A stretch of DNA of 64,000 nucleotides, taken from the NCBI GenBank assembly GCA_028714495.1, contig JAQTMH010000001.1, positions 73,721 through 137,720 of the forward strand, in the 5' to 3' direction. Each line of letters starts with the position of its first letter. Positions within the stretch are counted from its first letter, which is position 1. Below, one piece after another: positions 18,529 through 47,951 of this stretch. The notes under the pieces are model-generated. The model was not told where the DNA came from, made no database searches, and saw nothing but the letters and a program-made list of their open reading frames with translations. The DNA comes from Patescibacteria group bacterium. Lineage in GTDB: Bacteria > Patescibacteriota > Patescibacteriia > JAHIZJ01. The translations under genes were made by a program, and so were the position numbers.

Positions 18529-19482
18529 ATGGCTATCCCCTCGCTAAAACAACTCCTTCAAGATTTTCTCGACTATCTCGAAATCGAACGCAATTGCTCT
18601 CTGGCCACAAAGCGAAATTACCAGGCCTATCTTGATCGTTTTTTAGAATGGTCAAAATTGACCAAGCCTCAGGACATTACACTCGACGTAGTTCGGCAAT
18701 ACCGGCTCTACCTCAATCGGCAAGAAAACCAAAAAAAGGAAGTGCTGAAGAAAAGCACCCAGAACTACTATCTTATCGCCCTGCGGTCTTTTCTCAAATA
18801 TTTGGCCAAGCGTGATGTCAAAACCCTGGCCTCGGAAAAAATCGAGCTGGCAAAAATGCCTGAGCGGCAAGTCACCTTTCTCGAAGGCGAAGACCTGGAA
18901 CGTTTTCTCGAAGCGCCTTTAAAAACCAAGGAGCCGGCCATTATCCAGAAGCGCGATAAGGCCATTTTGGAAATGTTTTTCTCAACCGGCCTGCGGGTTT
19001 CGGAATTGGCCAACTTGACCAAAGAACAGATTAATCTCAAAAAAGACGAGTTCACGGTTCGGGGCAAAGGCAGCAAACTGCGCCTGGTCTTTCTCTCAAA
19101 CCAGGCCAAGTACTGGCTGAAAAACTATTTCGACGCTAGGCGCGATACCTCACTCTCGGTTTTTGTCAGGCACGACCGCGCCGTGAAAAAAAACGACGTG
19201 GCCAAGTCCCTCACTCCCAGAAGCATCCAGCGCTTGGTTCAGCACTACGCGAAATCGGCTGGCATCACCAAACGGATTACGCCGCATGTCCTTCGCCATT
19301 CCTATGCTACCGACCTTCTAACCAATGGCGCCGACATCCGCTCGGTCCAATCCCTGCTTGGCCACGCATCCATCACCACCACGCAAATCTATACTCACAT
19401 CACTAATCAGCAGTTGAAAGACGTGTACCAAGCATTTCACAGCCGCAAACGCAAGTCTCCGAATATTGACTCTAAAGAATAA
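18529..19482 (+). CDS. XerC/XerD-like tyrosine site-specific recombinase
   Basis: C-terminal HVLRHSYATDLLTNGADIRSVQSLLGHASITTTQIYTH (R-H-R-Y catalytic region). N-terminal SAM-like core-binding domain. Confidence 0.85.
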   Translation: MAIPSLKQLLQDFLDYLEIERNCSLATKRNYQAYLDRFLEWSKLTKPQDITLDVVRQYRLYLNRQENQKKEVLKKSTQNYYLIALRSFLKYLAKRDVKTLASEKIELAKMPERQVTFLEGEDLERFLEAPLKTKEPAIIQKRDKAILEMFFSTGLRVSELANLTKEQINLKKDEFTVRGKGSKLRLVFLSNQAKYWLKNYFDARRDTSLSVFVRHDRAVKKNDVAKSLTPRSIQRLVQHYAKSAGITKRITPHVLRHSYATDLLTNGADIRSVQSLLGHASITTTQIYTHITNQQLKDVYQAFHSRKRKSPNIDSKE

Positions 19483-19595
19483 ACAAAGTATATTCAAAAC
19501 AAAATAATAAATAAGTCCCCATAGTTTCCGCCCAAGGCGGACCCCGAATCCTGCATGGTTCGGGGCAATGATATAGACCCGCCCGACTCGCCTGA

Positions 19596-19627
19596 CGCCC
19601 TCATAGTTTAACGGATAAAACAGTGGC
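19596..19627 (+). pseudogene. tRNA 5'-half fragment (acceptor and D-arm only), diverged copy of the tRNA-Arg 5' end
   Basis: gccctcatagtttaacggataaaacagtggcc compared with gccctcgtagctcaacggatagagcgccagcc of the intact tRNA. No matching 3' half. Confidence 0.4.
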
Positions 19628-19648
19628 CTTCCCCCGCCCGCCTCAGCG

Positions 19649-19720
19649 AGCCCTCGTAGCTCAACGGATAGAGCGCCAGCCTTCTAAGCTGGTTATAGAG
19701 GTTCAATTCCTCTCGAGGGC
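19649..19720 (+). tRNA. tRNA-Arg (anticodon TCT)
   Basis: Cloverleaf folded by hand: acceptor GCCCTCG/CGAGGGC, D-stem GCTC/GAGC, anticodon stem CCAGC/GCTGG with loop CTTCTAA, T-arm AGAGG-TTCAATT-CCTCT. Discriminator A, no encoded CCA. Confidence 0.8.
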
Positions 19721-19753
19721 ACTTGAGGCGAGCGGGGCGGGTAAGCCGTAGAT

Positions 19754-19780
19754 GTAGGTTCGATTCCTACTGGGGATACC
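19754..19780 (+). pseudogene. tRNA 3' fragment (T-arm, acceptor 3' strand, encoded CCA) with no cognate 5' half
   Basis: gtagg-ttcgatt-cctac tggggat a cca. No ATCCCCA-type 5' strand within 100 nt upstream. A partial copy ctactggggataca recurs at about 20027. Confidence 0.4.
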
Positions 19781-20158
19781 AAAAAATTACTCTAAAAATA
19801 GAATTCAATTCTCGGAGCCCAGCCGGGCGGAGATCTCGCCGAATGGCGGGACTCTCGGGGGCACCAGACGAGTCAGGCGGGCGGGTAGGTTTCAAATTGG
19901 TTCTCCGCCACCATAACTAAAAAATTCGAGGTATGGCGGATCCCCGCCAGCCGTCGGGCAGGCGCCTTTGGCGGAGATTCTCGAAGCGCAGCGAAGATCC
20001 CGCCCTGAGCTTGTCGAAGGGCGGGACTACTGGGGATACAAGCCTTAAATCACCATCCAGGGTCACCGTCGAACTGGATTCGACGGTCCAGAAAACAAAA
20101 AATAAAACACATTAATAATGACGGGAAAGTAATAATTAATTATTAAATTTCCCGTCAT

Positions 20159-20482
20159 ATGCCACGAACTTATTACGTCTATATCCTGGCCAGTCAACGA
20201 AACGGAACATTATACATCGGCGTTACCAATAATCTTGAACGAAGAATATTTGAACACAAGACGAAATTCAACAAAGGATTCACCGAAAAGTACAATGTTA
20301 GTAAACTCGTGTATTTTGAGGAAACAAACGAAATCGGCGAGGCAATTCGTCGAGAGAAGCAACTGAAAGGATGGAACAGGGAATGGAAATTGGTCCTCAT
20401 TGAAAATGCGAACCCGAACTGGCATGATTTGGCAGCCGGATGGTTTAGCGGAGTTTCTGGGTCATCGGATCCCCCCGACTAG
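20159..20482 (+). CDS. GIY-YIG nuclease family protein
   Basis: YYVYILASQRNGTLYIGVTNNLERRIFEH (GIY-YIG motif). Confidence 0.85.
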   Translation: MPRTYYVYILASQRNGTLYIGVTNNLERRIFEHKTKFNKGFTEKYNVSKLVYFEETNEIGEAIRREKQLKGWNREWKLVLIENANPNWHDLAAGWFSGVSGSSDPPD

Positions 20483-20604
20483 ATCGGGGGTCGATGACGA
20501 CAATCTAAGTAGGTTTATTATATTGTTACTACCGGACTTAATCGGATGTTCCCGAAAGACAGAACGAAGTTCGGTGAGAAACGCGTGTCTACCTGGCGAT
20601 ATCG

Positions 20605-21198
20605 TTATGGCAACCTGGCTAATATCGTCAGCATTATCGTCTTGGCCTGTTCTTGGTTGCCGTTAAGGCCATAGAGTACTTGGGCCGTAAAGACGTCGCC
20701 GCCGCGGAGAACCCGAAAAAATCCCTGATCCGCGTCCCAATAGGCAAGGTCGCCATAACCGGTCACATCGATTGCGCGGTCCAATCGGGCCTTGTTCGCG
20801 TCGTAGTTTGCGCGCGCGGTTGTGGCTGAACCGAAGCGGTCAACCCCGACCCAAACCGATCTGGCAGTGGCCCCAGTGGCTGCCGTGGCGTAAACACAGT
20901 AATAATTATTGTCGTAACTAGAAAGAAATATTTTTCCAGTCGGCGGATCAGGCGGCACGAGCGTGACACCAACGATTTTTTCAGCTTCAGCTTGCGAATA
21001 GAGCTGACAAGCATGTTCAAACGAGGAGATGGAATTAGCATTTAACGTATTTGTCATGCTGGTGTTGCTGGTTGAGGCATTATTAGTTTGGTTCGTGTTG
21101 GTGGTGGTTTTTTTCGATGAGCAACTGGCACCGAGTAAAAGGATTATAGCGCTAATAAAGATAAGACTCGCCAAACGATAGGAAGGATGTGTTTTCAT
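20605..21198 (-). CDS. Secreted protein with a Ser/Thr/Asn-rich linker
   Basis: Signal peptide MKTHPSYRLASLIFISAIILLLGASCSS followed by a low-complexity TNTNQTNNASTSNTSMTNT linker. Confidence 0.6.
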   Translation of the reverse strand: MKTHPSYRLASLIFISAIILLLGASCSSKKTTTNTNQTNNASTSNTSMTNTLNANSISSFEHACQLYSQAEAEKIVGVTLVPPDPPTGKIFLSSYDNNYYCVYATAATGATARSVWVGVDRFGSATTARANYDANKARLDRAIDVTGYGDLAYWDADQGFFRVLRGGDVFTAQVLYGLNGNQEQAKTIMLTILARLP

Positions 21199-44828: not shown

Positions 44829-45929
44829 ATGGATCACAAAGAAAAATTGCTCGAGATATATCATAAATCGGTTGATGTATCAGATATAATAAATATATCT
44901 GATGAGGATAAAGTTTTCCTACAAAATGTAGCTTCCAATGTTGATAGAAATAAGGGTGTCTATACTGTGTTGGTTACTCTCCTAGTTCATAAGTTATTAG
45001 TGCCAAAGCAAGACATTAGATATTTCCAAAATAAAATGAAGAAGGGATTCTCTGCCCGAACGCTTGATACAAAGTTTATTACCCCTACTCTCAAAGAACT
45101 AAAATTGCCTTCAATGGCAGAAAGTGGATGGTTAACCAGAAGCTTGGAGCAACCTTATCCTTATACATTAAAGTATGAAGGTGAAATATCAGGAAAAGAT
45201 ATGAAGAAATCATTCTTGAGAATAATTGATTCGATTCAAAAACATCCTGCTTTAACGGAAAATTATCTCAGATTTATACTCAATGGATCAATTGCTTTTA
45301 GGGATAAAAATACTATCGAAATAAAAAAAATATTTAATGGCGATGGGTTGACCATTGCAACAATTGTAAACTTATTAGAGGAACATTTTACAGAAAATTA
45401 TAAAACGCACGGAGGGTCAAAACTTCCCGTTTTAGCCTTTTATGCTATATATAAAATTTTAGTTTCAGAGTTAGGGAGATACAATGGCTGTGAGCTATTA
45501 CCGCTGGGTAGCCATACTGCTTCAGACAGAACGTCAAAAAGTTCGGGGGATATAGAAGTTACAAAAAATGGTAAAATTTTTGAATCAGTTGAGGTAAAAT
45601 TAGATAAACAAATTGATATTACAATGACAAGGATTGCATACGAAAAAATAGTAAGATTTAATCCTATTAGATATTACATTCTTTCGTATATTGGAATAAA
45701 AGAACAAGATAAAAATGTAATTGAGGATTTGATTAAAGAAATTAAAACAAAGCACGGGTGCCAACTAATTGTGAACGGATTGTTGCATACATTACGGTAT
45801 TATTTAAGATTGATTTCTGATCCAAAGTATTTTTTTAACAGCTATATTAAACTAGTTGAAAATGATACAGAAATTAGGCCCATACATAAAATGAAGTTAA
45901 AAGGGTTGATAAAAAAATATGATCTATGA
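44829..45929 (+). CDS. Candidate Type II restriction endonuclease paired with the C5-MTase
   Basis: PD-(D/E)XK-like SGDIEV...ESVEVKLDK. Located immediately downstream of the MTase. Confidence 0.55.
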   Translation: MDHKEKLLEIYHKSVDVSDIINISDEDKVFLQNVASNVDRNKGVYTVLVTLLVHKLLVPKQDIRYFQNKMKKGFSARTLDTKFITPTLKELKLPSMAESGWLTRSLEQPYPYTLKYEGEISGKDMKKSFLRIIDSIQKHPALTENYLRFILNGSIAFRDKNTIEIKKIFNGDGLTIATIVNLLEEHFTENYKTHGGSKLPVLAFYAIYKILVSELGRYNGCELLPLGSHTASDRTSKSSGDIEVTKNGKIFESVEVKLDKQIDITMTRIAYEKIVRFNPIRYYILSYIGIKEQDKNVIEDLIKEIKTKHGCQLIVNGLLHTLRYYLRLISDPKYFFNSYIKLVENDTEIRPIHKMKLKGLIKKYDL

Positions 45930-47536
45930 AAGCAGTAATCCTAGCTAGAGTATCAACAGAAGAGCAGAAAGACGCAGGGAACTCACTCCCCGCCCAAATT
46001 GATAGATTAAAAAATTACTGCAAGCGCCAGAGTTTTGAAATTATCGAGACATTTAGTTTTGATGAGAGTGCCTACAAGACCAAACGCGATGAGTTTGATA
46101 AGGTGCTTGATTTTTTGAAAACGCATAAAGAGAAAGTCGCCATTTGTTTTGATAAGGTTGATCGGCTATCGCGCAACGTCTTTGATAAACGCGTTTCACT
46201 GCTTTATGATAAGGCAGTGGCCGATGAGATTGAATTGCATTTTGTTTCTGATGGCCAGGTTGTTGGGCCGTCAATGTCGGCAGTTGAGAAGTTTCATTTT
46301 GGCATCAGCCTAGGCCTTGCAAAGTATTATTCCGATGCTATCAGCGACAACGTAAATCGGGTTTTTGAGCAAAAACGCCGTCAAGGCCAGTGGCTTTCCC
46401 GTGCGCTTATTGGTTATGTTTATATTACGCTCAATGATGGTAAGAGGGATTTAGCGCCAGACCCTGAACGCGCGCATTTACTACGAAAACTCTTTGAACT
46501 ATACGGCACTGGGAATTACTCCCTGAACACTTTATGGCAGGAAATGAAAACGCTTGGCTTGCGAAGTATCAAGGGCAAGCCGATAGCACGTAGTAGCGTT
46601 GATCGTATTTTGCGCGATCCTTTTTACTATGGGATGGTTCGTTCAAAAAAGCACGGTTTATACCCGCATCGCTACGAGCCGCTTATTACCAAGGAGCTTT
46701 TTGATAAGTGCCAAGACGTAATGAGAGGGCGTGGCTATAAGCCGTCCAAACAGGCCTCCAGGCCGTATGTTTTGAAAGGCCTAGTTACTTGTAAAAATTG
46801 TGGCTGTTTATATACCCCCGAAATAAAGAAGGGCAAGTTCATCTATTACAGTTGCACCAACGCCAAGCATAACTGCAAAAGGGTATATGTCAGCGAGAAA
46901 GACCTGTTACAGCCCGTGTACGGGGTTTTCAAGGCCTTCGGTGGCATCTCTAAGGGGGTACAGGAACGGCTAGTATCCGAGCTAAGGTCTTTAAGCGAAG
47001 GCGAGACCGTCTTTCACCAAAAAGAGATTGAAAGGGTCCGGGCTGAATATGACCGAATACAGAAACGAATTGACGCTCTTTTAGATATGCGCCTAGACCA
47101 GAGTATTACGCACGATGACTATGACAAAAAATTGCAGGAGTTAAAAGACAGGCAACACCAGCTTGGCATTGAGTTGGAAGAATACACGAAAGCCGATCAT
47201 CAGTACCATATCCACGTTTCTACGGTACTAGACCTATCGCGCAGAATGGGTCAGATTTTTGATAGTTCTGAACCAGAGGAAAAACGCTCGATTTTGAACT
47301 TTATACTTCAGAACCCGACTGCGATAGGGAAGAAACTCAGCTTTACGCTTAAAAAGCCTTTTGATTCAGTACTTTCTTTAGCTTATGCCCAAACGGAAAA
47401 CAGGGCATTTAGCCCTGCTTGTCCTGTATGGGGTGGCCAGTGGGACTTGCACCCACAATCCCGGATCAAGGTCCGGGACCGGTGCCATACCCGCCCGCCT
47501 CGCGACGAGCGGCTTCATAAGCGGAGTCTGGGGTGA
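45926..47536 (+). CDS. Large serine recombinase (integrase)
   Basis: N-terminal resolvase domain AVILARVSTEEQ..., recombinase domain and Zn-ribbon CKNCGCLY...C. 536 aa. The 3' end overlaps tRNA-His. Confidence 0.9.
   Translation: MKAVILARVSTEEQKDAGNSLPAQIDRLKNYCKRQSFEIIETFSFDESAYKTKRDEFDKVLDFLKTHKEKVAICFDKVDRLSRNVFDKRVSLLYDKAVADEIELHFVSDGQVVGPSMSAVEKFHFGISLGLAKYYSDAISDNVNRVFEQKRRQGQWLSRALIGYVYITLNDGKRDLAPDPERAHLLRKLFELYGTGNYSLNTLWQEMKTLGLRSIKGKPIARSSVDRILRDPFYYGMVRSKKHGLYPHRYEPLITKELFDKCQDVMRGRGYKPSKQASRPYVLKGLVTCKNCGCLYTPEIKKGKFIYYSCTNAKHNCKRVYVSEKDLLQPVYGVFKAFGGISKGVQERLVSELRSLSEGETVFHQKEIERVRAEYDRIQKRIDALLDMRLDQSITHDDYDKKLQELKDRQHQLGIELEEYTKADHQYHIHVSTVLDLSRRMGQIFDSSEPEEKRSILNFILQNPTAIGKKLSFTLKKPFDSVLSLAYAQTENRAFSPACPVWGGQWDLHPQSRIKVRDRCHTRPPRDERLHKRSLG
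47440..47498. repeat. Partial duplicate of the tRNA-His T-arm region plus one arm of an inverted repeat (pair at 47745..47790)
   Basis: tgggacttgcacccacaatcccgg compared with tggggcttgcacccacaaccaccgg in the tRNA. cccggatcaaggtccggg/ggggtggcca recur inverted at 47745-47780. Confidence 0.6.
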
Positions 47537-47605
47537 CTAGTGGGGCTTGCACCCACAACCACCGGTGCCACAGACCGGTGCTCTACTAATTGAGCTATAG
47601 TCACC
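47529..47605 (-). tRNA. tRNA-His (anticodon GTG) with G-1 and encoded CCA
   Basis: Minus strand G-GTGACTA TA GCTC AATTAGTA GAGC A CCGGT CTGTGGC ACCGG TGGTT GTGGG TGCAAGC CCCAC TAGTCAC C CCA. Confidence 0.8.
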
Positions 47606-47744
47606 CCAGACTCAACTTAATATTAATTTAACATTTTCAATATTAATGTGAACTTCTTATATCCTTGCTCGGCGTCGGGGCAAGCAGACCGATACTCCCT
47701 GCCCCGCATAGCGAGTTTGTGTGGGGTACTCCCTGCCCCGAACC

Positions 47745-47790
47745 CGAGCTTGTCCCGGACCTTGATCCGGGATGGTTCGGGGTGGCCACC
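47745..47790. repeat. Inverted-repeat partner of 47440..47490, flanking tRNA-His
   Basis: cccggaccttgatccgggatggttcggggtggcc. Also a direct duplication of actccctgccccg at 47693 and 47729. Confidence 0.55.
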
Positions 47791-47951
47791 CCTGAGCCAA
47801 CTTCCCATACTAATTTCAAAAATATCGTATCAAAAATTGCCTGTTTTGGCAAGATTAACTGATAACTAATAAAAAAATCGCCTGCTCTCTGAATGCAGAG
47901 CAGGCGTGCCAAGCGATTCACATCACTTGGCTTGGCTCGGGCGCCGGATCA

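Follow-up and report, generated by a model that had tools for sequence, protein, structure and literature searches.

In a 64,000-nt stretch of a Patescibacteria genome (contig JAQTMH010000001.1, positions 73,721 to 137,720; hereafter the window), the 676-nt gap between an XerD-like recombinase gene and a GIY-YIG nuclease gene holds one intact tRNA gene, tRNA halves, three CCA-ending pieces and four GC-rich arms, all on the + strand. ARAGORN and Rfam identify a single gene in this gap, a tRNA-Arg(TCT) at 19650–19721 that does not encode its CCA and scores 73.9 bits against RF00005 (gathering threshold 29 bits). This confirms the intact tRNA-Arg reported in a first-pass annotation of the window. 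The same annotation had allowed that complete conventional tRNAs might explain all the fragments; the software finds only this one, and conventional tRNAs do not account for the rest. The intact gene, which we call type 2, is near-identical to the plain gene of a comparison locus (L001; L-numbers are labels of comparison loci or contigs from other genomes and metagenomes).

The intact gene occupies the innermost position and is bracketed by a diverged left arm, L2 (CCCCGCCCGCCTCAGCGA, 19632–19649), and a right arm, R1 (CTTGAGGCGAGCGGGGCGGG, 19722–19741). L2 and R1 form an inverted repeat (I3) in which 14 nt are 93% complementary (19632–45 against 19724–37), in agreement with the GC-rich inverted repeats noted earlier around the tRNA; two further arms are located at 19578–96 and 19867–85. 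The L2–tRNA–R1 unit folds as a GC clamp helix plus a cloverleaf (z = −5.2), and the pairing of the arms is kept by a compensatory change from the canonical CCTGA/TCAGG to CCTCA/TGAGG. The GC-rich motif described as recurrent in the first pass is represented by GGCGGGCGGG, which occurs three times in the window against 0.25 expected (0/100 shuffles reach three). Its third copy adjoins the tRNA-His gene of the window.

Directly upstream of L2 lies the 5′ half of a tRNA-Arg(TCT) of another type, type 3 (19597–19631). It comprises nt 1–35, ends in ...CTTC, is 74% identical to the intact tRNA over 35 nt, and resembles the intact type-3 genes of L006 and L007 and a 5′ half in L003. A half copy had already been recognized at this position, and these are its extent and identity. 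Directly downstream of R1, at 19742–19781, is a 3′ half of type 1 that begins with TAA and runs from nt 36 to the CCA; it is identical at 39 of 40 positions to the intact type-1 genes of L003, L004 and L005. The CCA-ending fragment previously placed at 19754–19780 is real, and it represents this full tRNA-Arg 3′ half, not a scrap of a different tRNA. When CTTC is joined to TAA across the L2–tRNA–R1 unit (...GGCCTTC / insert / TAAGCC...), a CTTCTAA anticodon loop (TCT) is restored. The unit of intact tRNA and arms thus interrupts an older tRNA-Arg(TCT) precisely at nt 35/36.

The 3′ half had been described as lacking a 5′ partner, and we find one at the outermost edge of the locus. The 12 nt of GTCCCCATAGTT at 19515–19526 correspond to nt 1–12 of the same tRNA type, are the same as the first 12 nt of the intact type-1 genes in L004 and L005, and pair 7/7 with the acceptor strand 19771–19777 in the minimum free energy (MFE) fold. 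The whole region 19505–19785 folds with the outer acceptor and T-arm closing the structure (z = −5.8). Two small GC-rich hairpins are seen in this fold within the D-arm of the outermost relic (19527–19565), and the D-arm region, after nt 11–16, also holds hairpins, of different sequence, in the outer relics of L003, L005, L023, L070, L158, L197 and L198. The hairpins are followed by a D-loop remnant, CAATGATATAGA (19566–19577; compare CAATGGATAGAA), recognized by comparison with the type-1 gene of L004.

The remaining two arms have canonical sequences. The left arm L1 (CCCGCCCGACTCGCCTGAC, 19578–19596) contains an 18-mer identical (18/18) to the sequence that adjoins tRNA-Arg cargo in genomes and metagenomes of the candidate phyla radiation (CPR). 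Its partner, R2 (GACGAGTCAGGCGGGCGGG, 19867–19885; complement-type repeat I6), lies 270 nt downstream of L1 and matches the family right arm at 19/19 positions; the same 19-nt sequence is the right arm in L003 (with one A/G difference), L023, L070, L075, L119 and others. R2 is preceded, at 19834–19866, by a hairpin in the place of a T-arm and a type-3 3′ end, CTCTCGGGGGCACCA (19852–19866; repeat D1), a CCA end absent from the first-pass annotation. Read directly from the sequence, this acceptor is complementary at 6/7 positions to 19597–19603, and the same architecture of hairpin, CT and acceptor is found in L023. The type-3 half at 19597–19631 is the former cargo of L1/R2 and is now disrupted. 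The outer pieces of the window cannot make a tRNA, as GCCCTCA mismatches TGGGGAT, hairpins take the place of two T-arms and the layers have been rearranged.

Further scraps follow downstream of R2. A CCA-ending piece that lacks a T-arm, TAGGTTTCAAATTGGTTCTCCGCCACCA (19886–19913), has no match in ARAGORN or Rfam. The first pass had seen this piece and suggested that it pairs with ggcggag at 19826. The helix GGCGGAG (19826)/CTCCGCC (19905) is possible, but the fold of 19826–19913 (z = −1.55) is no better than that of shuffled sequences, and we do not retain it as a tRNA-like structure. A second copy of a degenerate repeat unit of ~170 nt (repeats D1, D6 and D7) is observed at 19970–20040, with a T-arm-replacing hairpin (19998–20026) followed by CTACTGGGGATACA. 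The hairpin has a perfect 8-bp stem and the fold of the unit is not significant. The partial copy that had been noted near 20027 is part of an exact 13-nt repeat, CTACTGGGGATAC, shared with position 19767 (D7). Between these pieces, the stretch 19914–19969 ends in GTCGGGCAGG and resembles the 3′ end of another hairpin element, with a similar GGTTCTCCGCCCACA downstream of the L161 cassette. A conserved non-coding RNA downstream of the tRNA was also considered and rejected, with only three occurrences of the motif GAGATTCTCGAAG across all comparison loci.

The syntenic loci of relatives, gathered via XerD homologues, show the same site in different states. A plain type-1 tRNA-Arg(TCT) gene occupies it in L004 and L005, a plain type-2 gene in L001 and a plain type-3 gene in L006 and L007, the last of which is still flanked by decayed arms detected with a cassette covariance model. 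L003 shows the reverse nesting: a type-3 5′ half ending in CTTC, a left arm, an intact type-1 tRNA, a right arm and a short type-3 3′ end, with canonical arms throughout. The first-pass annotation had proposed comparison with related genomes to distinguish conserved pieces from unconserved junk; what is found at the site is plain genes, fragments or reverse nesting, and the arrangement of the window itself is shared with L008.

L008 is an independent assembly of a strain that is ~1.9% divergent over the flanking 7 kb, and its locus arrangement is identical. The arrangement in the window is therefore not an assembly artefact. Window and L008 differ at 131 of ~6960 aligned positions (1.9%). Within the 1773 nt of 18853–20625, which include the 3′ end of xerD, the tRNA complex and the GIY-YIG element, there is one difference where ~33 are expected, a 1-nt indel in the relic 5′ half at 19597–19631. 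This deficit suggests recent gene conversion or transfer of the segment. The earlier description of the locus as a recombination hotspot holds, with three sequence types of tRNA-Arg(TCT), nested copies or fragments found among close relatives at one syntenic site, and with this near-identical 1.77-kb tract between strains.

Downstream of the plain tRNA-Arg in L006 (4072–4260), we observe two hairpins of the form AGCCCGCCCC(C)GA...TCGGGG(G)AGGGC, with a helix of ~12 bp and one G·A mismatch each. One runs straight into ACCA, in the manner of an acceptor/T-arm minihelix; the 3′ two-thirds of a tRNA follow the other. Both fall within the exact 18-nt direct repeat GAGGGCACCAGAAGATTG.

What organizes the locus is a conserved family of cassettes, each with a whole tRNA-Arg gene between paired arms, and these arms are the GC-rich repeats. 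The pieces form layers of nested tRNA-Arg genes and are not random debris. A cassette consists of a left arm (consensus as in L1), one complete tRNA-Arg and a right arm (consensus as in R2), the arms base-pairing with each other. It is inserted precisely and without target duplication in a loop of a target tRNA-Arg, between nt 21 and 22 (GGATA|GAGC) or nt 35 and 36 (CTTC|TAAG). The L2/R1 unit, with pairing arms around a complete tRNA-Arg, is such a cassette, located at nt 35/36 of a same-anticodon tRNA-Arg. L1 follows a D-loop remnant, and the arm sequences of L1/R2 are canonical, although the cargo between them has itself been broken and rearranged. A covariance model derived from 22 cassettes gives a full-length match to 19633–19741 of the window with 90.6 bits (E = 3e-15), against 69.2 bits for plain tRNA-Arg (21 bits lower).

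Further cassettes were retrieved by exact-pattern scans, with a 16-nt right-arm pattern over genomes and a left-arm pattern over metagenomes. Most of the 120 genome hits are chance matches in GC-rich genomes, and the real cassettes among them are the hits in CPR (L023, L070, L075, L080, L097 and L119). Cassettes are found in Saccharibacteria, Kerfeldbacteria, Doudnabacteria, Buchananbacteria and Magasanikbacteria, and in many unbinned contigs. All 24 unique arm-flanked inserts contain an intact tRNA, in every case a tRNA-Arg (tct, cct, ccg, gcg or tcg). The 113 unique left-arm sites in metagenomes comprise 25 tRNA cargoes (25/25 Arg; a set that overlaps with the 24 cassettes), four disrupted tRNA cargoes and 43 hairpins without cargo, the remainder being a few GIY-YIG cargoes and chance matches. 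When the cassettes are excised in silico, the host is recognized as a tRNA in 10/24 cases, and cargo and host share the anticodon in 8/10. In these eight hosts the insertion follows nt 21–22; one further case is an anticodon-loop insertion with an extra hairpin.

Pairwise identity is 97–98% in the arms and 71% in the cargo, a conservation of the arms that is partly a selection effect of exact-pattern retrieval; the arm not used in a given search is also near-invariant. The stems of the cargo are rich in compensatory changes. The inner tRNA is intact in all cassettes, and the outer gene ranges from reconstructible, as in L119, where the composite folds as a clean double cloverleaf (MFE frequency 0.24), to truncated or hairpin-riddled (L003, L149, L165, L204, L235 and the window). 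Some outer genes carry further GC hairpins in the D-arm, D-loop, anticodon loop, variable region or T-arm. Such an asymmetry of intact inner and decayed outer genes, together with the shared anticodon, is expected where insertion inactivates the host gene and the loss is made good by the cargo.

The arms also occur without tRNA cargo. The same 18-nt left arm forms hairpins of 39–41 nt (43 unique), inserted precisely, without target duplication and in some cases nested in one another, and hairpins with this arm are found around and inside RayT (REP-associated tyrosine transposase; REP, repetitive extragenic palindrome) genes of other phyla. In the Thermodesulfobacteriota-like contigs L195, L241, L243, L168 and L228, the RayT gene is flanked by repeats. 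In L195, L241, L243 and L168, the left arm together with a right arm ...GATGGCGGGCGGG brackets a GIY-YIG open reading frame (ORF) inside the RayT-family gene, where the insert falls between the codons of ...YAWALIPN and those of HFHILLRT (the HUH motif) and splits the motif. Removing four elements from the L195 gene in silico, all in one orientation, yields a complete ORF of 349 aa with Y1_Tnp and Bac_DnaA_C domains. Homologues of this protein are annotated as RayT or REP-associated tyrosine transposases, come from Thermodesulfobacteriota and Anaerolineae, and are mostly uninterrupted. Copies of 39 and 105 nt in RayT genes are in frame and read through; the 41-nt copies and those with GIY-YIG cargo are out of frame.

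A link of the arms to REP/RayT-type mobile DNA follows from the identical left arm that builds hairpins around and inside RayT genes. As with REPINs, paired REP sequences that form hairpins, there is a multi-copy inverted pair, with 43 short copies that have an identical left arm and no target duplication. Judged from these sequence features, the arms appear to behave like REP/REPIN-type hairpin repeats of a RayT family. Background on REP sequences is given in PMC3733652. The likeness extends to short GC-rich hairpin repeats that insert without target duplication and share their left arm with RayT genes; unlike REPIN–RayT systems, the cassettes carry cargo and target tRNA loops, and no RayT was found in the CPR loci compared. 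We know of no REPIN that carries a cargo gene or inserts into a tRNA gene. Rickettsia palindromic elements also have copies that lie in frame within ORFs and are read through, like some of the copies here.

Two observations on the interrupted RayT genes are added. In L195 (1882–3460), L241, L243, L168, L228 and L131, all Thermodesulfobacteriota-like, the RayT-family genes are interrupted at identical positions by hairpin elements with the left arm of the CPR cassettes; the exons have intact frames and differ by synonymous changes. Ribosomal bypassing of the hairpins was rejected by reasoning, as take-off and landing codons do not match and the insert with GIY-YIG cargo is 337 nt long.

We think it rather probable that the locus was built by REPIN-like nested mobile cassettes, which would move at the DNA level and complement the gene that they disrupt, so that only the innermost tRNA is functional. 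Small cassettes would have inserted repeatedly into whichever tRNA-Arg(TCT) gene was in use. Each insertion would split its target gene, and the same-anticodon cargo tRNA would take over the function. Transcription from the conserved promoter at the end of xerD would run across the relics, and RNase P and 3′ processing would free only the innermost tRNA at 19650–19721. The remainder would then be relics: halves of two or three earlier tRNA-Arg genes, the arms L1, L2, R1 and R2, GC hairpins, 3′-end scraps and a separate GIY-YIG mini-element. A RayT-type HUH transposase may process the arms, as REP/REPIN-like ends, in the form of single-stranded hairpins ("peel-and-paste"), and such handling would explain the precise and duplication-free insertion into loops. 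The folded tRNA cargo would bring its own ends together, so that the flanking arms could pair as in a short hairpin. Alternatively, or in addition, the cassettes may spread by homologous recombination in naturally competent CPR, with the conserved tRNA halves as portable homology.

Several points weigh against this interpretation. Neither the 64-kb window nor the CPR loci compared yielded a RayT or any other transposase for the arms, and the RayT homologues come from Thermodesulfobacteriota and Anaerolineae, none from CPR. The insertion sites of the cassettes compared share no evident target sequence. In the window, the type-1 3′ half and a spacer separate L1 from its partner R2, and the exact order of events cannot be reconstructed. 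The invariance of the arms is subject to the retrieval effect mentioned above. Furthermore, the outer acceptor stems are complementary at 7/7 positions in 11/17 scorable genes, some of them with two or three inserts. They are thus more intact than long-dead genes should be, as removal at the RNA level predicts, although a retrieval bias toward a young subfamily with exact arms may partly account for this.

An explanation of this kind, in which the arms and hairpins are RNA-level intervening sequences, is unlikely but has the most to be said for it among the alternatives. The inserts would be removed from the precursor, or cut without religation, and inner and outer tRNA-Arg would arise from one transcript; the nesting would be a functional polycistronic or split-tRNA design. 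In bacterial 23S rRNA, intervening sequences are removed by RNase III and the fragments are not religated. Besides the acceptors, the outer tRNAs elsewhere keep all cloverleaf stems and differ from the inner ones by compensatory changes, the insertions are all in loops (D, anticodon, variable or T), and both the double cloverleaf of L119 and the co-oriented elements of L195, whose removal restores an ORF, fit such a scheme. The window itself does not, given its mismatched acceptor strands, hairpin-replaced T-arms and scrambled 3′ parts, and several outer genes elsewhere are truncated. A cargo with the same anticodon fits the complementation of a killed gene and would not be needed by a spliced intron, and the 39- and 105-nt elements in RayT genes are read through in frame. 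We know of no bacterial enzyme for such an excision. The more general proposal that arms and hairpins form a new class of bacterial intervening sequences, recognized by their paired ends and removed by host enzymes from tRNA precursors and some mRNAs, appears improbable; if it held, CPR would express tRNAs within tRNAs, and genes with up to three inserts would still be functional.

The junctions are not of the archaeal bulge-helix-bulge type, in which two 3-nt bulges flank a helix of 4 bp: the terminal nucleotides of the insert already pair in the arm helix, which leaves a 4 × 3 internal loop (CUUC/UAA) at the anticodon site and, at the D-loop, a bulge of 8 nt facing 0 nt. A group I intron is rejected as well, with no match to Intron_gpI and an insert of 110 nt, 72 nt of which are tRNA, against a P3–P9 core of ~200 nt or more. 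Rfam gave no hit to self-cleaving ribozymes or group I introns in the arms. A precedent exists in animals, where "SOS splicing" removes transposons with inverted terminal repeats from mRNA upon pairing of the repeats, with RTCB as the ligase (PMC12779559). The 23S rRNA intervening sequences and SOS splicing resemble the present case in having hairpin-forming inserts whose paired ends could mark an excision in RNA, an analogy that bears on the intervening-sequence explanation only.

Archaeal split, intron-containing and permuted tRNA genes offer another comparison, for which PMC3293823 presents a disruption model based on Caldiarchaeum. The split tRNAs of Nanoarchaeum and Caldiarchaeum likewise consist of halves divided at the anticodon loop, abut GC-rich complementary sequences and have been associated with mobile elements. 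They differ from the present locus, where the host is a bacterium, no bulge-helix-bulge is formed, a complete replacement tRNA lies between the halves and the outer halves of the window cannot form a tRNA.

Debris from the integration and excision of islands at a tRNA gene, with attL/attR-type fragments left by tyrosine or large serine recombinases, would also yield tRNA pieces, and we consider it a rather poor explanation for the core of the locus. Large serine recombinase genes do abut tRNA-Arg in L004 and L005 and the tRNA-His relic of the window, in L006 the tRNA 3′ end and its flank recur as an exact 18-nt direct repeat (GAGGGCACCAGAAGATTG), and several scraps of the window are CCA-bearing 3′ ends (19852–66 and 20027–40). 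The core pieces, however, are non-overlapping complementary halves (nt 1–35 and nt 36–76) of one gene and not duplications, and the 5′ halves stop exactly at nt 35 or nt 21, abutting an arm. The inserts are ~110 nt long and consist of conserved paired arms and a whole tRNA, with no integrase; the same arms and architecture recur in at least five named CPR candidate lineages, and the XerD-like gene is syntenic irrespective of the state of the locus. An att duplication is not seen at the core, where the 5′-half copy is only 74% identical, and the repeat in L006 indicates that the process also acts at this locus. The decayed att sites of the first-pass annotation are thus not what the core consists of, which is complementary halves split by inserts of ~110 nt; some of the downstream 3′-end scraps are att-like.

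Islands and prophages that integrate at tRNA genes restore the gene by supplying its 3′ part from a copy on the element. The cassettes share with them the tRNA target, often at the anticodon loop, a carried tRNA sequence that keeps the gene working, the accumulation of fragments and the formation of a hotspot. Unlike islands, they are inserts of ~110 nt without an integrase, carry a whole tRNA between paired inverted-repeat arms, and leave complementary halves in concentric nesting. On our interpretation, the cassettes belong with self-complementing mobile DNA at tRNA genes.

Homing driven by the GIY-YIG nuclease is very unlikely as the general mechanism. The nuclease would cut a cassette-free tRNA-Arg gene, and repair would copy the cassette and its flanks. 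The parallel is T4 SegB, a GIY-YIG homing endonuclease in a phage tRNA cluster that promotes intronless homing (PMC2330249). In both cases a GIY-YIG gene lies beside tRNAs; SegB causes preferential inheritance and gene conversion of the tRNA region, and the tract shared with L008, which resembles co-conversion, spans the tRNA complex and the GIY-YIG gene. A GIY-YIG ORF is located near a left arm in four independent tRNA-Arg and five RayT contexts, and the ORF in L150 lies between a T-loop-interrupted and an intact tRNA-Arg. Most cassettes, however, have no GIY-YIG gene nearby, and the CPR protein, of ~100 aa, is a bare catalytic domain without a DNA-binding domain for site recognition. In contrast to SegB, it has its own hairpin terminal repeats and is usually not beside tRNAs; the five contexts without tRNA point to a separate mini-element.

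A single unusual RNA gene, whether a permuted or two-piece tmRNA, a tRNA-like regulatory RNA or a split tRNA, is already largely refuted and scarcely credible: the three CCA-ending pieces and the closing acceptor helix and T-arm (z = −5.8) would suit it, but ARAGORN finds no tmRNA in the window, Rfam none at E ≤ 10 in 19400–20250, the acceptors (G1-T2-C3 and G1-G2-C3) have no G3:U70, and relatives carry a plain tRNA at the locus. The 13-mer CTGGATTCGACGG at 20072–84, which we take to resemble the 5′ region of tmRNA, forms loop and stem of the left terminal hairpin of the GIY-YIG element, a hairpin that L003 retains with compensatory changes. Searches for a tmRNA or permuted tmRNA at the gathering threshold and at E ≤ 10 returned only the one tRNA and an antisense tRNA artefact (Plastid-ycf2). 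The split/permuted or tRNA-derived gene offered as an alternative in the first pass is accordingly not supported, the outer pieces being mismatched, truncated or T-arm-replaced and the host bacterial.

Returning to nested DNA-level cassettes, an element that carries a replacement could safely enter an essential tRNA gene, which would be a neat selfish strategy. CPR bacteria have minimal genomes and, as far as is known, mostly single-copy tRNA genes. The cassettes would explain the strong divergence of tRNA-Arg between close relatives at this locus, and they leave tRNA pseudo-fragments that mislead annotation. They would represent a natural cargo-carrying hairpin element with arms common to RayT-associated repeats of other phyla. 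If the inserts were instead removed from RNA, bacteria would for the first time be seen to have a protein-dependent tRNA intron system. The full-text literature searched, whose coverage of subscription journals is thin, yielded no account of tRNA-in-tRNA cassettes in CPR, which is absence of evidence only.

A second nested locus in the window involves tRNA-His (47429–47792, − strand). It consists of an outer 5′ part with hairpins, an AT-rich spacer, an intact gene (47529–47604), an R-like arm that ends in GGCGGGCGGG (47490–47528) and the outer 3′ half, whose variable region carries a hairpin. Nesting of this kind thus extends beyond tRNA-Arg. An orthologous nested tRNA-His is present in L003 (7860–8160), with relic hairpins that differ from those of the window; the relics persist over the divergence between the two and gain new hairpins. 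A large serine recombinase gene (45926–47536, + strand; Resolvase, Recombinase and Zn_ribbon_recom) has an annotated 3′ end that runs through the tRNA-His relic on the opposite strand. As such recombinase genes abut both this relic and the tRNA-Arg of L004 and L005, classical integrative elements use the same tRNA loci.

Upstream of the tRNA complex, the recombinase gene noted in the first pass is borne out as an XerD-like tyrosine recombinase (18529–19482, + strand; Pfam Phage_integrase, E = 9e-41), 100% identical to a protein named from a Patescibacteria metagenome-assembled genome. The window also encodes PNPase, and the host is hence a bacterium. XerD homologues are found across Patescibacteria at 65–100% identity in a shared PNPase–NYN–S15–xerD–tRNA-Arg synteny. 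The XerD-like gene is kept in all syntenic loci compared, whether scrambled or plain, and is therefore a conserved chromosomal neighbour, neither an island integrase nor a part of the cassette. A sigma-70-like promoter, TTGACT-17-TATATT (10/12 match), is located at the end of xerD (19466–19494, + strand) and probably drives the whole tRNA complex; TTGAC-N17-TATA(T/G)T also occurs upstream of tRNA-Arg in L003, L004, L005 and L007.

Downstream of the tRNA complex, the GIY-YIG nuclease gene is present as first annotated (20159–20482; PF01541, E = 1e-16). Its product of 107 aa comprises the catalytic domain only and belongs to a very large CPR family. The gene is part of a mini-element (20061–20498, + strand) with a left hairpin end (20066–86), a palindrome (20118–58) and a right hairpin end (20461–98). 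GIY-YIG ORFs lie 40–600 nt downstream of a left arm, on the same strand, in the four tRNA-Arg contexts (window/L008, L003, the L023 group and L150) and the five RayT contexts mentioned above. In five other contexts, a homologous ORF without a tRNA nearby is bracketed by TGTCAT[hairpin]ATCCAG ... CTGGAT[hairpin]ATGACA, and the element of the window ends in the same way. Because these contexts have their own hairpin terminal repeats, we regard the GIY-YIG unit as a separate mini-element that shares the hotspot, and an obligatory partnership with the tRNA cassettes is rejected. It may contribute breaks that drive conversion.

Minor observations concern other copies of this element. The right terminal repeat overlaps the C-terminal codons of the GIY-YIG ORFs of CPR (L249–L257 and the window), which looks like an undescribed compact mobile unit. 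In L150 (600–1095), two hairpins and a GIY-YIG ORF lie within the T-loop of a tRNA-Arg(TCG), which they interrupt, and an intact tRNA-Arg(TCG) follows directly; the bodies of the two copies are identical up to the break point and their acceptor stems differ. Comparison of L251 with L253 (175–1797) shows the phosphoglycerate mutase gene iPGM beside the GIY-YIG element as one ORF of 540 aa in one and as three fragments in the other.

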